64,000 nt of DNA from Ignavibacteriales bacterium (GTDB taxonomy: Bacteria > Bacteroidota > Ignavibacteria > Ignavibacteriales > DAOSCP01). This document shows positions 5,432-59,035 of this stretch, piece after piece. The notes under the pieces are model-generated. The model was not told the origin of the DNA, searched no databases, and saw only the letters and a program-made list of their open reading frames with translations. A program made the translations under genes and the position numbers. Positions within the stretch are counted from its first letter, which is position 1; every line of letters begins with the position of its first letter. Location of the stretch: contig DAOSVM010000006.1 in NCBI GenBank assembly GCA_035379625.1, positions 11,485-75,484 of the forward strand. Reading direction: 5' to 3'.

Positions 5432-6021
5432 TAGCTCGGACGGTGTAGGCTTAAGCCCGTGCGCTGTGCGCACGGGCGGGCTGAAGCCCAAAATATTCGA
5501 TTTACTACGCTATATACAACCTTTTATCAATTGCTTCCAATAATTATATATTTACCATATAGATTTAACATAAATATTTTAATTTGGTTGCAAATTTTAA
5601 AAGCCTGATAATATTTTCGTAAAAATGATATAATTGTATTTACGATATATTAACAAAATTCAGAAATATATTTGTATTTACAATATAATTGTATATACGA
5701 TATATTAGTAATTTTCGATGACATATTTGTAAATACGATATAATAGCTTTTACGATATAATTGTAAATGCAATTATATTATAAAAAAACATCGCATCAAA
5801 TGTAAAAATTTGCAAAATTACATATTAGCTTCGTTAAAAGCTTAATTTTTATCTAACACTTTACGGGTTGCCTGGTATTTTGGAAAGATATGAGTATAAA
5901 GGCTCAAAGCACTACACTTTGTTAGGTGTCAAAGAAAAGATTTTTAGCGGGCCGGAACTGCCCGCTGCCCCTTGCGGCTTGTCACAAGCCGCAAGGGGCT
6001 TAAGCTTACACCGTCTGAGTA
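5432..6021 (+). mobile_element. Non-coding TIR-bounded repeat element, copy 1 (A end to B end on the + strand), 590 bp
   Basis: Left end TA|GCTCGGACGGTGTAGGCTTA; right end TAAGCTTACACCGTCTGAG|TA. Hairpins at 5455-5477 (10-bp stem), 5478-5489, 5946-5966 and 5968-5998 (13-bp perfect stem). AT-rich core holds the 17-bp repeat array. Homologous to the copies at 37503, 54943, 58506 and 25056. Confidence 0.85.
5616..5777 (+). repeat. Tandem array of nine ~17-bp units (consensus WTTGTAWWTACRATATA) organised as 3 x 55-bp higher-order repeats
   Basis: Units read directly: ttcgtaaaaatgatata / attgtatttacgatata / ttaacaaaattcagaaatata / tttgtatttacaatata / attgtatatacgatata / ttagtaattttcgatgacata / tttgtaaatacgatata / atagcttttacgatata / attgtaaatgcaattata. 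Lengths 17+17+21 three times (last unit 18) total 162 bp. Confidence 0.85.
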
Positions 6022-9467: not shown

Positions 9468-9474
9468 AAAAAAA

Positions 9475-9546
9475 GGGCTACACAGCAATCATCCTTACCG
9501 TTGCTGCCTTCCGGCCCTGGCGGGGTTGGGGACTATGCTGTTAGCC
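9475..9546 (-). ncRNA. ffs: Signal recognition particle RNA (small 4.5S type)
   Basis: Minus-strand RNA: GGCUAACAGCAUAGUCCCCAACCCCGCCAGGGCCGGAAGGCAGCAACGGUAAGGAUGAUUGCUGUGUAGCCC followed by U9. It contains the SRP domain IV signature CAGG-CCGGAAGG-AGCA with a GGAA tetraloop. The 5' GGCUAACAGCA pairs with the 3' UGCUGUGUAGCC. Exact ends are uncertain. Confidence 0.7.
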
Positions 9547-9550
9547 AATG

Positions 9551-9582
9551 CAAATATAATAAAATATTATTTAATTTGCAAA
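9551..9582 (-). promoter_or_regulatory. Bacteroidetes-type promoter (-33 TTTG, 20-nt spacer, -7 TATATTTG) for the SRP RNA
   Basis: The minus strand reads TTTGcaaattaaataatattttatTATATTTGcatt immediately before GGCUAAC. This matches the TTTG / TAnnTTTG consensus described for Bacteroides sigma-A. Confidence 0.5.
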
Positions 9583-9800
9583 AAGTAAATTATTTAATTA
9601 TATTAAAAAAGAAAAGCGACTAAATTGGGATTAAAGATATAAATAGCATTAATGATAAGTATCATCTATGTTAAATTAAAATGTAAAATATATTAAAATA
9701 ATATTAAATTAGATATAATAATAATCACAATCTTGACATTAAAAAAAGAAATGGTTATTTTGTAACCAAGAAAAACAAAACCTATAAAATGGAGGCAAAG

Positions 9801-25055: not shown

Positions 25056-25116
25056 TAGCTCGGACAGTGTAAGCTTATCCCGCGCATTAGCGCGGGTAGC
25101 TATCGCTAAAAATATA
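25056..25116 (+). mobile_element. Truncated copy of the repeat element (A end only)
   Basis: TA|GCTCGGACAGTGTAAGCTTA, hairpin cccgcgc-atta-gcgcggg, mini-hairpin tagc-tatc-gcta, then AAAAATAT. There is weak similarity to the element interior up to about 25250 (..attttaccataaaatattt..). No repeat array, B end or second TIR. Confidence 0.7.
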
Positions 25117-27394: not shown

Positions 27395-29011
27395 ATGATA
27401 AAAGATGAAATATTAAAAAAAATAGGTATAATAATCAATATTTTGAAATATTATGATGAAAATAAATTCAAAATTTTAGCTTATGAGAAAGTTATTGATA
27501 TTATTGAAAAAATTAATGAAAATGAATTGATTTCGTTACTTCAAGAGAAAAGAATAACAGAAGTTGAAGGAATTGGAAAGGGTATTAGTGAAGTTTTATA
27601 TGAAATTTATGAAAATGGCAATGCAAAAATAATTAATGAATTTGTAGAAAATTATGGCGAGGAATTTTTAGATTTGTTTAAGATTAAAGGTTTAGGCGTA
27701 AAAAATATAAAAAAACTTTTTGATTTGTATGGTGTTAATTCATTTGATAAGTTGGATGAATTGTTGGCAAGTGGTGTAAAATTAAAAGAACCTAAATTGA
27801 AAGAAAGTTTAATAAAGAATATAAGAGAACAAATTCCATTTTTGAAAGAAAGTAAGTATAAGTATATATATCCAATAGCCTTGCGAAAAGCTGAGAGGAT
27901 GAAAAAAGTATTAGAAGAAATAGAGGGCGTTGAAATAGTAGAGTTTACGGGTGAAATAGAACGATACGCAGAAGTAGTAAATTTTATAGAGATGGTAGTG
28001 TTATGTAATGGGGATTTATTTAATGAATTGGTGAAAAATTTTGGAAATGTAGAACAAAGAAAAATAAAATTATTTGATTTAGAGCTTGATATCTATCTAA
28101 TTTATTATGATGGGGCACATTATAAGTTATACCACGTTTACGGAAAAAATGATTTAGGGAAAGTTATCAAGTTGACGCGGGCAACGCTTATACTGTCCGA
28201 GCCAATAAAAGATTTAAAAATATTTGAAAAATTTATACCAGAGATGTGGGAAATTGAGAATATAGGGAAAGAGGTTGAAAATGAAAAAATAGTAAAGTAT
28301 GAAGATATTGTTAGTGTTTTGCATTTTCATACGAATTGGAGTGATGGTAGTAATACATTGGAAGAGATGTTTGATGGGATAGAAAAGAGTAAATTTGAGA
28401 TTGCTGGGGTGTGCGATCACAGTAAATCGTCGTTTTGGGCTAACGGATTGAGTGAGGAGGAGGTTTTACAGCAGCATAAAGTTATTGAAGAGTTGCAAAA
28501 AAAGTATAGGATTAAGTTATTAAAAGGCATAGAGTGCGATATACATAAAGATGGTAGTTTGGATTATGGAGATGGTTTTTTGAAAGAGTTTGATTTTGTG
28601 GTAGCTGCTATTCATCAATTTACAGATGATGATGAGGAATTTTATACAAAGAGGATGATAAAAGCAATTGAGAATCAATATGTTAATATAATAGCTCATC
28701 CAACAGGTCGACTATTACTAACAAGGCTGCCGTATCCGATAGATATTTATAAGGTTATAGATGCTTGTGCAAGTAATAATGTAGCAATTGAAATAAACTC
28801 TACTCCATCTAGAATGGATTTAAGTTGGAAGTATTTGGATTATGCGATGAATAGAGGGGCGAGATTTGCTATTAATCCTGATGCGCATTCGACACAGGAA
28901 ATTTTTAATATTGAATATGGTGTTAAATCTGCAAGAAAGGCAGGTGTTTATAAAGAATATGTTATAAATACATATAAATTGGATGAGTTGTTAAGGTGGT
29001 TTAATAAGTAA
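27395..29011 (+). CDS. PolX-like protein (HhH/pol-beta-like N-terminal region + C-terminal PHP phosphoesterase domain)
   Basis: 538 aa. Has ..VEGIGKGISE.. and ..IKGLGVKNIKKL.. HhH motifs, and a PHP domain from ..LHFHTNWSDGS... The middle (28186-28206) contains a sequence resembling the repeat-element terminus. Confidence 0.65.
   Translation: MIKDEILKKIGIIINILKYYDENKFKILAYEKVIDIIEKINENELISLLQEKRITEVEGIGKGISEVLYEIYENGNAKIINEFVENYGEEFLDLFKIKGLGVKNIKKLFDLYGVNSFDKLDELLASGVKLKEPKLKESLIKNIREQIPFLKESKYKYIYPIALRKAERMKKVLEEIEGVEIVEFTGEIERYAEVVNFIEMVVLCNGDLFNELVKNFGNVEQRKIKLFDLELDIYLIYYDGAHYKLYHVYGKNDLGKVIKLTRATLILSEPIKDLKIFEKFIPEMWEIENIGKEVENEKIVKYEDIVSVLHFHTNWSDGSNTLEEMFDGIEKSKFEIAGVCDHSKSSFWANGLSEEEVLQQHKVIEELQKKYRIKLLKGIECDIHKDGSLDYGDGFLKEFDFVVAAIHQFTDDDEEFYTKRMIKAIENQYVNIIAHPTGRLLLTRLPYPIDIYKVIDACASNNVAIEINSTPSRMDLSWKYLDYAMNRGARFAINPDAHSTQEIFNIEYGVKSARKAGVYKEYVINTYKLDELLRWFNK
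28186..28206 (+). repeat. Solo TIR-like remnant of the repeat element inside the PolX-like ORF
   Basis: cgcttatactgtccgagccaat (28185-28206) versus the copy-5 terminus agcttacactgtccgagctaat gives 19/22 identities, same polarity as a right end. It is preceded by a GC-rich mini-palindrome gcgggcaacgc. Confidence 0.5.
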
Positions 29012-37433: not shown

Positions 37434-37451
37434 GCTTATTTATAAATTAAG

Positions 37452-37483
37452 AGCAAGGAAGCTTTAGCGACCTTGCTTTTTTT
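37452..37483 (+). terminator. Rho-independent terminator
   Basis: agcaagg..(loop)..ccttgct followed by a T-run. Confidence 0.6.
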
Positions 37484-37502
37484 ATTTTAAAAGAATCATA
37501 AT

Positions 37503-37992
37503 TAGCTCGGACGGTATAAGCTTAGCCCCCGTGCGCACGCAGGCGCACGGGGGCAGCGGGCCGGAACGGCCCGCAAAAATGATAAATCTTACGAAGCCGC
37601 TGTGTAATATTATAAATTTATTAATTTGATGTGTTTTTTATATAATTGTATTGACGATTATATTGTAAAAACAATAATATAGTAAATGCGAATATATTTT
37701 TAAAAGTTGTAATAATATCGTATATGCAATTATATCGTAATAGCGAATATATTTTAAAAATTGTTTAAATATCGTAAATGCAAATATATTGTATATACGA
37801 ATATATTATAAGACTTTTGCATTTGCCAGTAATATTTAAAATTTTTCGAATATTTTAATATGGTAAATAATGTAAATGTTGTAAGTAGTTGATAATATTA
37901 TAGATAAGTAGGCATAATTGGAATAATTTTTGGCGTCAGCCTGCCCGTGCGCCTTCGTGCGCACGGGCTTTATGCTTACACTGTCTGAGCTA
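37503..37992 (-). mobile_element. Non-coding TIR-bounded repeat element, copy 3 (B end first on the + strand), 490 bp
   Basis: TA|GCTCGGACGGTATAAGCTTA ... TATGCTTACACTGTCTGAGC|TA. B-end hairpins at 37526-37553 and gcgggccg-gaa-cggcccgc; A-end hairpin cccgtgcgc..gcgcacggg at about 37945-37967. 17-bp array at about 37641-37805. Confidence 0.85.
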
Positions 37993-54910: not shown

Positions 54911-54939
54911 AAAGCTCTCCTAAAAGAGAGCTTTTTTTT
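54911..54939 (+). terminator. Rho-independent terminator of the cyd operon
   Basis: aaagctctc-ctaaaa-gagagcttt, with the T-run continuing to 54939. Confidence 0.8.
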
Positions 54940-54942
54940 ATA

Positions 54943-55507
54943 TAGCTCAGACAGTGTAAGCTTAAAGCCCGTGCGCCGTGCGGCGCACGGGCAGGCTAAC
55001 GCCCAAAATTTTTCCCCAATACATTCCAATTAATTTTACCAATTTATTTTAATATTTTTACATTTAGCAAAATAACTAAATATTGTTTAATTATTCTTTT
55101 GTATGCTTAATGATAAATACAAAATTAAACATAATATCGTTATAATTATACATCAGATATTACAATAAAATTGCGTTTAAGATATATTATTAATTTTCAA
55201 TAATATATATACAAAAACAATATAATTGCTTATACGATATAATTGTAAATACAATCATATTATATAGAAATCAGAAATAAATATAAAAATATGCAAGATT
55301 ACATATTAGATTTAACAAAAAAAATCAGTCAAACATACAATCTGCACTGCATTTTGACGCTGCATTATAAGAGATGTGGAATTATGAAACTGTTAAGCTA
55401 CACTTTGTAAGGTGATAATGAAAAGATTTTTAGCGGGCCGTTCCGGCCCGCTGCCCCTTGCAGCTTTCCACAAGCTGCAAGGGGCTATACCTATACTGTC
55501 TGAGCTA
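54943..55507 (+). mobile_element. Non-coding TIR-bounded repeat element, copy 4 (A end to B end on the + strand), 565 bp
   Basis: TA|GCTCAGACAGTGTAAGCTTA ... TATACCTATACTGTCTGAGC|TA. A hairpin 54967-54992 (11-bp stem). B hairpins are agcgggccg-ttc-cggcccgct and 55454-55484 (13-bp perfect stem). The 17-bp array at about 55130-55262 is more degenerate. Confidence 0.85.
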
Positions 55508-57285: not shown

Positions 57286-58629
57286 ATGTTACCCCAAAAA
57301 AATGACACATTTTGGAGAAACCTTGTTACAGGTAAAATCGAACATGAATTTAATTTTATGGTTGCTAGTCTACTTGTAAAAAGATTAAATTTAACTACTT
57401 ATTTCGACCCTTCTGAAGAAACCATAAGTAAATGTATTGATGAAGTATATGATTTTTTTACAAAGTATCAAAAATTTTTAAATAAAGATATAATTCCATT
57501 GCTTGGTATTCCAAGTATTATGCAACTTATGACAGTTGAGCAGGCAAAAGAAGAAATTAAAAAGGGAAAAAATTTAATTATTGCCGGAAATGAAAAAATA
57601 CTATCTGCTTTACCAGCCGGTAATTGGATAGCTGGTACAAGTAATTCTTTCATTGATAAAAACTCGTGTATAACAACTGATGATTTATTGTTTGTAAATG
57701 AACTACCATACTACATTGAAAATATAAAAATTGAAGAATTTACAGAAAATAATATTCAAAATATAAATAGAAATTCCTACGATAATGGCTTTACAATATT
57801 AATTTTACCATTTGAAAGTAAAATACATATTAAATATGCAAAAAATGCAGCGTTCTTTGAAAGTATTTATACATCACCTATAATAGGTTGGATAGCTGGA
57901 GATATTGATAATTCCCGAGCAAAAATATTTAATGGTAAAGAGCTTACATCATCATCTCATAAAGGCATTGCAATGTATTGCGAACTACCCAAAGATAAAA
58001 CTGCAAAATTAAGTATAATAAATTTGTTTAAACCAAATTTAAATTATAAAATTGAATTTTTAGAAGATAGTTTCTACATTAATGAAGCCTTAGTAAACGG
58101 TAAAAAAGTTAAATTTTTAGAATTTTTAAAAAGCATGAATTACGATATAAAAAACCCGCTTACAGCAAATTTGTATGGTTCCTTCATAAATGTAAGCTTT
58201 AAAGAAATTATTAATGACAATATTTATATGTACGCCCCTGTTTTCAAAGGAACTGAATACCATTTATCGATACCTATAAGTAATTACGTAGATGAATTTA
58301 ATTCAATAGAACAAATAAACGCTAACCCAGTATTTAGTTGTCATTGTATATTAAATTATAAATATTCGGAGTTAGAAGGGAAAAAATTAAATAATTTTTA
58401 TGGACCGTCTACATATGGAGAAATAGGCTATATTTTACTAAATCAGACAGTAGCATATTTAGAAATATTAAAAAAAAGCTGTCTTGTAAGGCAGCTTATT
58501 TTATTTAGCTCAGACAGTATAGGCATAGCCTCTTGCGGCTTGTGCCAAGCCGCAAGAGGCAGCGGGCCGGAACGGCCCGCTAAAACTCTTTCTTTATCAC
58601 CTTACAAAGAGCGGTGCTTTATGGCCTAA
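57286..58629 (+). CDS. Hypothetical cytoplasmic protein; the last ~41 codons are read from a terminator and repeat-element copy 5
   Basis: 447-aa ORF with no recognisable motif. From about 58476 the frame passes through a terminator hairpin and then the element B end (..FSSDSIGIASCGLCQAARGSGPERPAK..). Confidence 0.5.
   Translation: MLPQKNDTFWRNLVTGKIEHEFNFMVASLLVKRLNLTTYFDPSEETISKCIDEVYDFFTKYQKFLNKDIIPLLGIPSIMQLMTVEQAKEEIKKGKNLIIAGNEKILSALPAGNWIAGTSNSFIDKNSCITTDDLLFVNELPYYIENIKIEEFTENNIQNINRNSYDNGFTILILPFESKIHIKYAKNAAFFESIYTSPIIGWIAGDIDNSRAKIFNGKELTSSSHKGIAMYCELPKDKTAKLSIINLFKPNLNYKIEFLEDSFYINEALVNGKKVKFLEFLKSMNYDIKNPLTANLYGSFINVSFKEIINDNIYMYAPVFKGTEYHLSIPISNYVDEFNSIEQINANPVFSCHCILNYKYSELEGKKLNNFYGPSTYGEIGYILLNQTVAYLEILKKSCLVRQLILFSSDSIGIASCGLCQAARGSGPERPAKTLSLSPYKERCFMA
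58476..58505 (+). terminator. Rho-independent terminator-like hairpin (inside the 3' end of ORF 57286-58629)
   Basis: aagctgtc-ttgtaa-ggcagctt followed by attttattt. The sequence is related to the terminator at 57151. Confidence 0.6.
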
Positions 58630-59035
58630 ATATTCAAATCTTTCCAAAATACGCGGCAGCTTACAATTGATGCGATTTTTTTTTATAATATAACTGCATT
58701 CCCAATTATATCGTAAAATCAATTATATTGTATTTACAAATATATTATTAAAAATTACTAATATATCGTATATACAATTATATTACAAATACAAATATAT
58801 TTTTAAAAAAAAGAATATATCGAAAATACAATTATATCGTAATTACGAAAATATTTTAATATTTTTAAAGTTTGGTATTACTTTGGAAAATTTTTAATCA
58901 ATAGTTATATTGGTAGATGTATAAATGTTGTATATGGTTGATATTATGTAAGATATGGTTTAATTAGTGAAATATATTTTGGGCGTTAGCCCGCCCGTGC
59001 GGCGCACGGGCTTTAAGCTTACACTGTCCGAGCTA
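58506..59035 (-). mobile_element. Non-coding TIR-bounded repeat element, copy 5 (B end first on the + strand), 530 bp
   Basis: TA|GCTCAGACAGTATAGGCATA ... TTAAGCTTACACTGTCCGAGC|TA. B hairpins are 58529-58559 (13-bp perfect stem) and gcgggccg-gaa-cggcccgc. A hairpin is cccgtgc-ggc-gcacggg near 58994-59010. The interior aligns well with the reverse complement of copy 1. Confidence 0.85.
58689..58849 (-). repeat. Tandem array of nine ~17-bp units (reverse-complement form TATATYGTAWWTACAAW), 3 x ~55 bp
   Basis: Units: tataactgcattcccaat / tatatcgtaaaatcaat / tatattgtatttacaaa / tatattattaaaaattactaa / tatatcgtatatacaat / tatattacaaatacaaa / tatatttttaaaaaaaagaa / tatatcgaaaatacaat / tatatcgtaattacgaa. 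Confidence 0.85.

Follow-up and report, generated by a model that had tools for sequence, protein, structure and literature searches.

The AT-rich tandem array at 5616-5778 of the 64,000-nucleotide stretch of DNA analysed here (the window) is non-random and is confined to a dispersed chromosomal element, of which the window holds four full and two partial copies. We tentatively favour, on comparison of the sequences, the view that this is a MITE-like non-autonomous element whose array is a predicted protein-binding module serving the element itself. All 46 copies examined contain the array, whereas other stretches of the AT-rich core often give way to unrelated sequence, which fits one option offered by an earlier, sequence-only reading of this DNA, that of a putative binding array connected with mobilisation. 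The features that the same reading drew from plasmid iterons and centromeres, and the roles it proposed for the host, fared less well and are taken up below.

Structure of the array

The tandem structure is genuine, with a 55-bp repeat present ~2.8 times between 5607 and 5778. Tandem Repeats Finder resolved 5607-5759 at a period of 55 (2.8 copies, 75% matches), and the same interval also scores at a period of 17 (7.7 copies, 61% matches, 10% indels). The arrays of the other full copies gave a period of 54 with 2.8 copies at 37660-37811 (copy 3), a period of 55 with only 2.0 copies at 55162-55270 (copy 4), and a period of 54-55 with 2.8 copies at 58707-58859 (copy 5). Because the 55-bp periods are more similar to one another than adjacent 17-mers are, the higher-order description is the correct one.

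Each 55-bp period consists of a 17-mer A, a 17-mer B and a 21-bp spacer, so that there are two good 17-bp units per period. The unit, TYGTAWWTACRATATAA, is a 12-bp near-palindrome followed by ATATA, and units follow the pattern TYGTA-WW-TACRA and then ATATA(A). Recognisable 17-mers in copy 1 begin at 5616, 5633, 5671, 5688, 5726, 5743 and 5760 (3, 0, 0, 0, 0, 3 and 4 mismatches, respectively), with start-to-start spacings of 17, 38, 17, 38, 17 and 17 bp. The 21-bp stretches at ~5650-5670 and ~5705-5725 have at least six mismatches to the motif, which is the chance level. The array is built of three periods of unit A, unit B and spacer, plus one extra terminal unit. It had been described as nine 17-bp repeats within a 55-bp super-period; the 55-bp period is real, but only six to seven units are recognisable and the 21-bp stretches are spacers. 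The accompanying remark that equivalent units fall on the same face of the DNA holds only approximately, since 55 bp corresponds to 5.24 turns at 10.5 bp per turn, an offset of ~86 degrees with each period.

Motif counts leave little room for chance. With up to 2 mismatches allowed, the 16-mer TTGTAWWTACRATATA has 22 matches in the window against 2.9 expected, a count of 22 being reached in 0 of 100 shuffles, and 15 of these 22 matches fall in the four arrays. Four placements of the motif with up to 2 mismatches lie in 5616-5777 compared with 0.01 in shuffles of the same base composition, and the copy 5 array contains six 17-mers at this threshold. The copy 1 array closes on a 24-bp near-palindrome, ATATAATTGTAAATGCAATTATAT, at 5755-5778, and in the family consensus the 24 bp at this end, ATATAATTGTAAATACAATTATAT, form a perfect palindrome. 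Judged by their symmetry, the units are near-palindromes of the kind recognised by dimeric DNA-binding proteins. As single-stranded DNA the array folds better than its shuffles (z = -4.15), as is expected of tandem near-palindromes.

Anatomy of the element

A four-copy alignment places all four arrays at the equivalent position of a 490-590 bp non-coding repeat, and the earlier statement that every full copy in the window carries the array is borne out. The element begins with a 22-bp terminal inverted repeat, a GC-rich hairpin pair and ~120 bp of AT-rich DNA, which lead to the array; beyond it come a segment of variable sequence, two further GC-rich hairpins and the closing inverted repeat. 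The terminal inverted repeat, which begins TAGCTCRGACRGTRTAAGC, has 10 matches in the window against 0.12 expected. No conserved open reading frame was found in the element copies, which have no coding capacity, and the whole element folds far better than its shuffles (z = -11.4).

Copy 1 is a full-length, non-coding copy of 590 bp (5432-6021, + strand) between the convergent thrB and U32 peptidase genes, delimited by inverted repeat matches at 5433-5450 (+) and 6004-6021 (-) together with the four-copy alignment. Its left terminal inverted repeat, TAGCTCGGACGGTGTAGGCTTA (5432-5453, +), is 95% identical to the consensus across 45 copies. The left GC-rich hairpins at 5456-5489 (+) read CCCGTGCGC-TGT-GCGCACGGG and then GGGCTGAAGCCC, with stems that are conserved and loops that vary over 42 copies. 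The three 55-bp periods of the array (5616-5778, +) were placed from the 17-mer starts, Tandem Repeats Finder and the consensus periods. Beyond the variable segment, covariation over 43 copies identifies the right GC-rich hairpins at 5947-5999 (+), comprising HP-R1 (GCGGGCC...GCCCGC, 5947-5965) and HP-R2 (5967-5999), and an inverted repeat match marks the right terminal inverted repeat at 6000-6021 (-).

The other three full copies were delimited by alignment, inverted repeats and Tandem Repeats Finder. Copy 3 (37503-37992, -) is reversed and lies between convergent genes; copy 4 (54943-55507, +), whose array is cut to two periods, was inserted directly 3' of a terminator T-run; and copy 5 (58506-59035, -) is again reversed. 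The two partial copies were recognised by inverted repeat matches. One is a solo left end of inverted repeat and hairpin, without array, at 25056-25110 (+), and the other is a 33-nt element-end fragment (GGCTCGGACAGTATAAGCGTTGCCCGCG...) at 28171-28204 (-), in frame within a PolX/PHP gene (27395-29011). The solo end and the fragment bracket three housekeeping genes; the inverted repeat pair 25057/28203 was considered as a transposase-bearing element and rejected, as it encloses proline dehydrogenase, tsaD and PolX. The surrounding DNA is chromosomal, with thrAB, tsaD, fab genes, the SRP RNA and type IX secretion cargo, and its nearest named relatives among the matches listed are Ignavibacteriales MAGs.

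Confinement and conservation of the array across the family

Scanning metagenome contigs with a right-hand hairpin pattern that contains no array sequence yielded 46 loci, and the element is also present in one Ignavibacteriales MAG. A scan of a genome collection with the inverted-repeat 18-mer was unspecific, most of its at least 27 rows being chance matches. From the loci we extracted 45 distinct copies bounded by inverted repeats, with lengths of 260-745 bp.

The array does not occur apart from these elements at any appreciable rate. Across 498 kb of related DNA, 208 of 256 motif matches lie within 650 bp of an element end, and a profile of the array matches 62 times in 806 kb, 61 of them beside an element end; the sole off-element match, inside a hydrolase gene, looks like chance. 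The motif is confined to the elements and is not simply the commonest AT-rich word, the compositional artefact that the sequence-only reading had allowed for.

Identity to the family consensus over the 45 copies is highest in the 22-bp terminal inverted repeats (0.90-0.95), followed by the hairpin regions (0.87-0.90), the array (0.81), the left AT-rich segment (0.69), and finally the segment that lies right of the array (0.67). In the right hairpin, 95.6% of the cells over 43 copies are paired and 7-8 pairs show changes on both sides; 0 of 500 shuffles reach the observed covariation, and slid controls pair only 32-50%. It follows that the stems are maintained, whether through selection on the hairpin or through templated correction of quasi-palindromes, and the compensatory changes could come from such correction instead of selection.

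Presence of the individual modules separates the array from the rest of the core. Located by consensus similarity, which makes the count partly circular, the array module could be identified in every one of 46 copies, with a span of at least 129 nt in 42. The left AT-rich segment was detected in 40 of 46 copies and the segment to the right of the array in only 25, with several unrelated sequences substituting for it elsewhere. When copies were paired at random, array segments were significantly alike in 91% of pairs and flanking core segments in 34-40%, figures to be read with the same partial circularity in mind and with the inflation of alignment scores that internal repetition brings. In a relative whose ThrB is only 68% identical, the element has 2.5 array periods within a core that is otherwise unrelated, and in a minimal copy of 260 bp one unit survives at the centre of a single 38-bp palindrome.

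The position of the array is also constant. It always starts ~130-220 nt from one terminus and points away from that terminus, even in copies with hairpin types swapped between the ends, namely the copy of the relative with 68% identical ThrB and two others. Swaps of this kind, which imply recombination between palindromic end modules, were seen in loci L064, L065/L071 and L081 (12720-13327), and in each of them the array still lies as far from the nearer terminus as elsewhere and points the same way. Two further loci (L015 and L073) were considered as a cross-species occupied site and rejected because they come from nearly identical strains. No match to the element was found in Rfam 15, where only the SRP RNA reaches threshold in the window, and a search within copy 1 at E-values up to 5 returned nothing credible. 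In the literature searched, we found nothing on these sequences or on Ignavibacteria repeats.

Genomic location and a possible route of mobility

The elements sit at the 3' ends of genes. Among 36 copies with callable neighbours, 20 lie between convergent, 15 between tandem and 1 between divergent genes, and the orientation of the array relative to neighbouring genes shows no bias (6 co-oriented, 9 opposed). Elements occur at ~one per 15-30 kb, and many solo ends are present among the loci. The flanks are symmetric, T-rich on the left and A-rich on the right, and TTCATT is common in them. Element ends frequently abut or lie within ~50 nt of an intrinsic-terminator T-run, as at 54920-54945, 58470-58506 and 37440-37500 of the window and at two related loci (L052 8150-8180 and L059 8560-8590), which suggests a target preference for terminator tails, or survival only there.

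Like MITEs, the elements have terminal inverted repeats (22 bp, 90-95% conserved in 45 copies) and are small (260-745 bp), non-coding, multi-copy and dispersed, with four full and two partial copies in the window and 46 other loci. No variable target-site duplication rose above expectation at any offset or length in 45 copies. TA stands at both ends in 27 of the 45 copies, constant and indistinguishable from the element ends; it could belong to the element or represent a fixed duplication. The flanks were also searched for an inverted extension, with none found, and no empty allele appeared among 52 flank pairs, the available relatives differing in gene order at the sites. Within ~0.5 Mb of loci, neither a transposase nor an autonomous partner sharing these inverted repeats was found, an all-against-all comparison of the open reading frames of the loci revealed no multi-copy family, and there is no transposase gene in the window. 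Genes of ~400 aa beside copies 1, 3 and 5 were considered as mobility genes and rejected as unrelated housekeeping genes.

We infer that the element is a non-autonomous DNA transposon of MITE-like type, which would insert a short way 3' of genes at T-rich/A-rich sites, perhaps at TA. Its array would most likely be a cluster of 6-7 predicted sites for a dimeric DNA-binding protein, which could be the mobilising enzyme or an accessory or host factor. Binding there would help to assemble the transposition complex, in the manner of an internal enhancer or of subterminal binding sites. Lineages that are still propagating would retain the array because it serves the element, and a copy would be released from this constraint once inserted and would then decay.

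Age and decay of the array

The periods carry signatures that are common to the copies: A1 reads TCGTA..ACGA, A2 and A3 read TTGTA..ACAA, and the B units have ACGA. The triplication is therefore older than the spread of the family, and each copy has inherited it and none has generated its own. The maximum in any copy is ~3.2 periods. Two loci that share the same insertion, L065 (5173-5740) and L071 (4323-4848), differ by a 49-bp deletion between two array units, which is direct evidence of slippage within the array. This allelic pair also differs by a 7-nt change in a hairpin loop.

Within copies, one-sided changes that break the palindrome are common, symmetric double changes in the units show no excess, giving no palindrome-preserving co-variation, and the best-conserved positions of the unit are those of the ATATA stretch and not of the palindrome arms. 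Since one-sided breaks are common and symmetric double changes are not enriched, inserted copies decay without visible constraint. Such decay is equally what would be seen if the array were a neutral passenger, a reading which we consider rather unlikely but which is the main rival to a module serving the element. Here an ancestral master copy would by chance have carried a triplicated AT-rich 55-bp segment, itself derived from a 17-bp duplication, and passed it to all its descendants, with no function for element or host. Free decay with one-sided palindrome breaks agrees with this, as do the roughly half of copies that no longer score as a 55-bp repeat and the loss of whole or partial periods by slippage (copy 4, and the 49-bp allelic deletion). 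The main-subfamily array, at ~87% to consensus, is moreover hardly better conserved than the right-hand segment at ~84%. Against a passenger, the array has outlasted several independent replacements of the adjoining core segment and is also present, at an unchanged distance from one terminus and in unchanged orientation, in the relative whose ThrB is 68% identical; the minimal 260-bp copy, too, still keeps one palindromic unit.

Transcription and host factors

The SRP RNA gene at 9469-9550 is preceded by TTTG-N20-TATATTTG (9551-9590, - strand), a Bacteroidetes-type -33/-7 promoter, and the organism therefore probably uses this promoter grammar. Each 55-bp period of the array starts with TATATTTG, identical to the -7 box of the SRP RNA promoter. 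The units might thus act as tandem promoter-like sequences, or the element as an RNA gene, with transcription toward the hairpin-capped end giving a structured RNA or read-out into neighbouring genes; we find this improbable. The units contain TATAAT, sigma-70-like pairs number 10 against 4.9 expected, and the strong fold of the whole element would suit a structured RNA. Moreover, the single DNA match in the databases is with nine repeats of 17 bp in front of Borrelia ospD, which have been described as carrying promoter-like hexamers. The -7-like boxes nonetheless have no TTTG at the right distance upstream, so that the -33 spacing is wrong, and the segment downstream of the array, which would be transcribed, is unconserved between subfamilies. 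Nor is there an orientation bias relative to genes, a match in Rfam, or a terminator-like site that scored.

The match to ospD came from a BLAST search of copy 5 against plasmids, which returned only these repeats, on lp38 of Borreliella burgdorferi (L084 2496-2652), at 71.7% identity over ~155 nt. The ospD array comprises nine near-perfect 17-bp repeats, TTGATATTAAAATATAA, and shares with the present one a 17-bp period and the word ATATAATTG in every unit. It is, by contrast, homogeneous (nine copies, 98% matches), associated with one promoter, devoid of a higher-order period and located outside any mobile element, in a phylum unrelated to the Ignavibacteriales. The likeness is probably compositional or convergent.

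The sequence-only reading had proposed the copies as landing pads for a sequence-specific DNA-binding protein, with possible host-level roles in nucleoid organisation, silencing or titration as a decoy. These roles are weakened because copies decay freely, periods have been deleted and array orientation is random with respect to neighbouring genes. A version in which the copies recruit a nucleoid-associated protein or regulator, perhaps a factor that recognises palindromes upstream of thrA, seems to us doubtful at best. It draws on the near-palindromic form of the units and on the density of the elements, and also on similar palindromes, TAGTATATACAA and TCGTATATACGA, in the promoter region at 1843-1884, which are conserved at the orthologous site of a relative showing no elements in 16 kb. 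Set against these points, inserted copies show no purifying selection, the 6 co-oriented and 9 opposed arrays display no consistent relation to genes, the GTAWWTAC core is not enriched outside elements (7 observed, 8.7 expected), and the similarity upstream of thrA is not a unique outlier among AT-rich windows. A host regulon was considered and rejected on these last two results, together with the occurrence of other single sites upstream of unrelated genes.

The thrA-upstream palindromes deserve mention in their own right. They are AT-rich and 22 bp apart, between an operon encoding DUF8199, HMA-like and TonB-receptor proteins and thrA, and resemble the array unit. The pair is kept in a relative with 70% identical ThrB (L083 7321-7362) and may be an operator for a regulator.

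As a long shot, the elements might be portable operator clusters, each bringing 6-7 predicted near-palindromic sites for a dimeric regulator that would also act at native promoters (e.g., 1843-1884), so that a host regulon would be titrated or rewired over the whole Ignavibacteriales chromosome. If true, this would be a bacterial counterpart of the arrays of transcription-factor sites borne by eukaryotic transposons.

Only in its form does the array resemble true iterons or the partition centromere of a plasmid or phage replicon, whether integrated or former: 17-bp direct repeats stand in tandem, with a higher-order period, in an AT-rich setting. This reading is very improbable given the absence of rep, par and transposase genes from the window and surrounding loci, the presence of at least 45 copies dispersed in chromosomal DNA and each bounded by inverted repeats, and a unit spacing of 17/38 bp.

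Comparison with known repeat systems

The iteron and centromere analogy of the sequence-only reading thus fails on context. Plasmid iterons are direct repeats of ~17-22 bp in tandem, for the most part spaced at ~22 bp in helical register, and iteron and sopC arrays are single-copy, lie beside rep or par genes and define the replicon. Both iterons and the sopC locus of F (12 x 43-bp units, each with a palindromic SopB site) resemble the present array in having direct repeats of 17-22 bp, or longer palindrome-containing units, in AT-rich DNA. Here, 17-bp units exist but their starts alternate between spacings of 17 and 38 bp in the 55-bp period, and instead of a replicon origin beside a cognate rep gene there are dozens of copies in a chromosomal housekeeping context with no linked genes. 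Where a partition centromere would stand beside a parAB or parMR operon, one or a few per replicon, the window has four arrays in 64 kb. Viral contigs, scanned for exact patterns (a two-unit array; inverted repeat plus hairpin), gave no matches, BLAST of copy 5 against phages gave nothing, and no homologous plasmid was found.

By analogy of design, the pneumococcal BOX element is the closest counterpart, with end modules and an internal tandem module. BOX of Streptococcus pneumoniae is organised as boxA - tandem boxB - boxC, and its boxB copy number differs greatly from locus to locus and from strain to strain (PMC3049150). Like the element described here, BOX is a modular, non-coding, interspersed repeat with end modules that can pair and an internal tandem array; it likewise lies between genes and resembles a MITE, and it too has neither a clear target duplication nor a proven transposase. 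The variable copy number of BOX is not shared, as the present array is a fixed three-period higher-order repeat (up to ~3.2 periods) that only decays. The Ignavibacteriales elements are also longer, carry GC-rich hairpins beside the inverted repeats, and have no sequence in common with BOX.

Two other groups of repeats share parts of this plan. High copy number, placement between genes, possible TA flanks and terminal inverted repeats of 22-26 bp are features that the present family shares with the Correia/NEMIS elements of Neisseria and with other IS630-type MITEs. Correia elements carry an internal site for the DNA-binding protein IHF. They are, however, only 100-155 bp long and have no tandem array, and their TA duplication is documented, whereas here TA is indistinguishable from the element ends. 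REP/BIME/REPIN sequences resemble the present elements in their GC-rich hairpins at gene 3' ends, compensatory maintenance of stems and lack of a visible target duplication. REP units measure 20-40 nt and are mobilised by RAYTs (REP-associated tyrosine transposases), and no RAYT-like gene was noticed among the annotated genes of the loci; true terminal inverted repeats and a 450-bp AT-rich core with an array set the present element apart.

If the reading of a MITE-like element with a protein-binding module is right, these copies belong to an undescribed family of small mobile repeats in uncultured, AT-rich Ignavibacteriales, one that would fill perhaps 1-3% of the chromosome. Its build is unusual in that, of all the internal parts, only the fixed array of three periods with palindrome-containing 17-mers is retained by every subfamily, and the array would offer a concrete bait for the protein that moves or recognises the elements. 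It would amount to no new class of biology unless a host function of the array were shown. For annotation, the family would account for many long 'empty' intergenic regions and for GC-rich hairpins at gene ends in these MAGs. One gene end in the window, at 58426-58629, appears to bear the mark of an insertion: the DUF6976 gene (57286-58629) has no stop before a terminator-like hairpin and runs 125 nt into element copy 5, whose insertion appears to have replaced the last few DUF6976 codons with a tail of ~40 residues.
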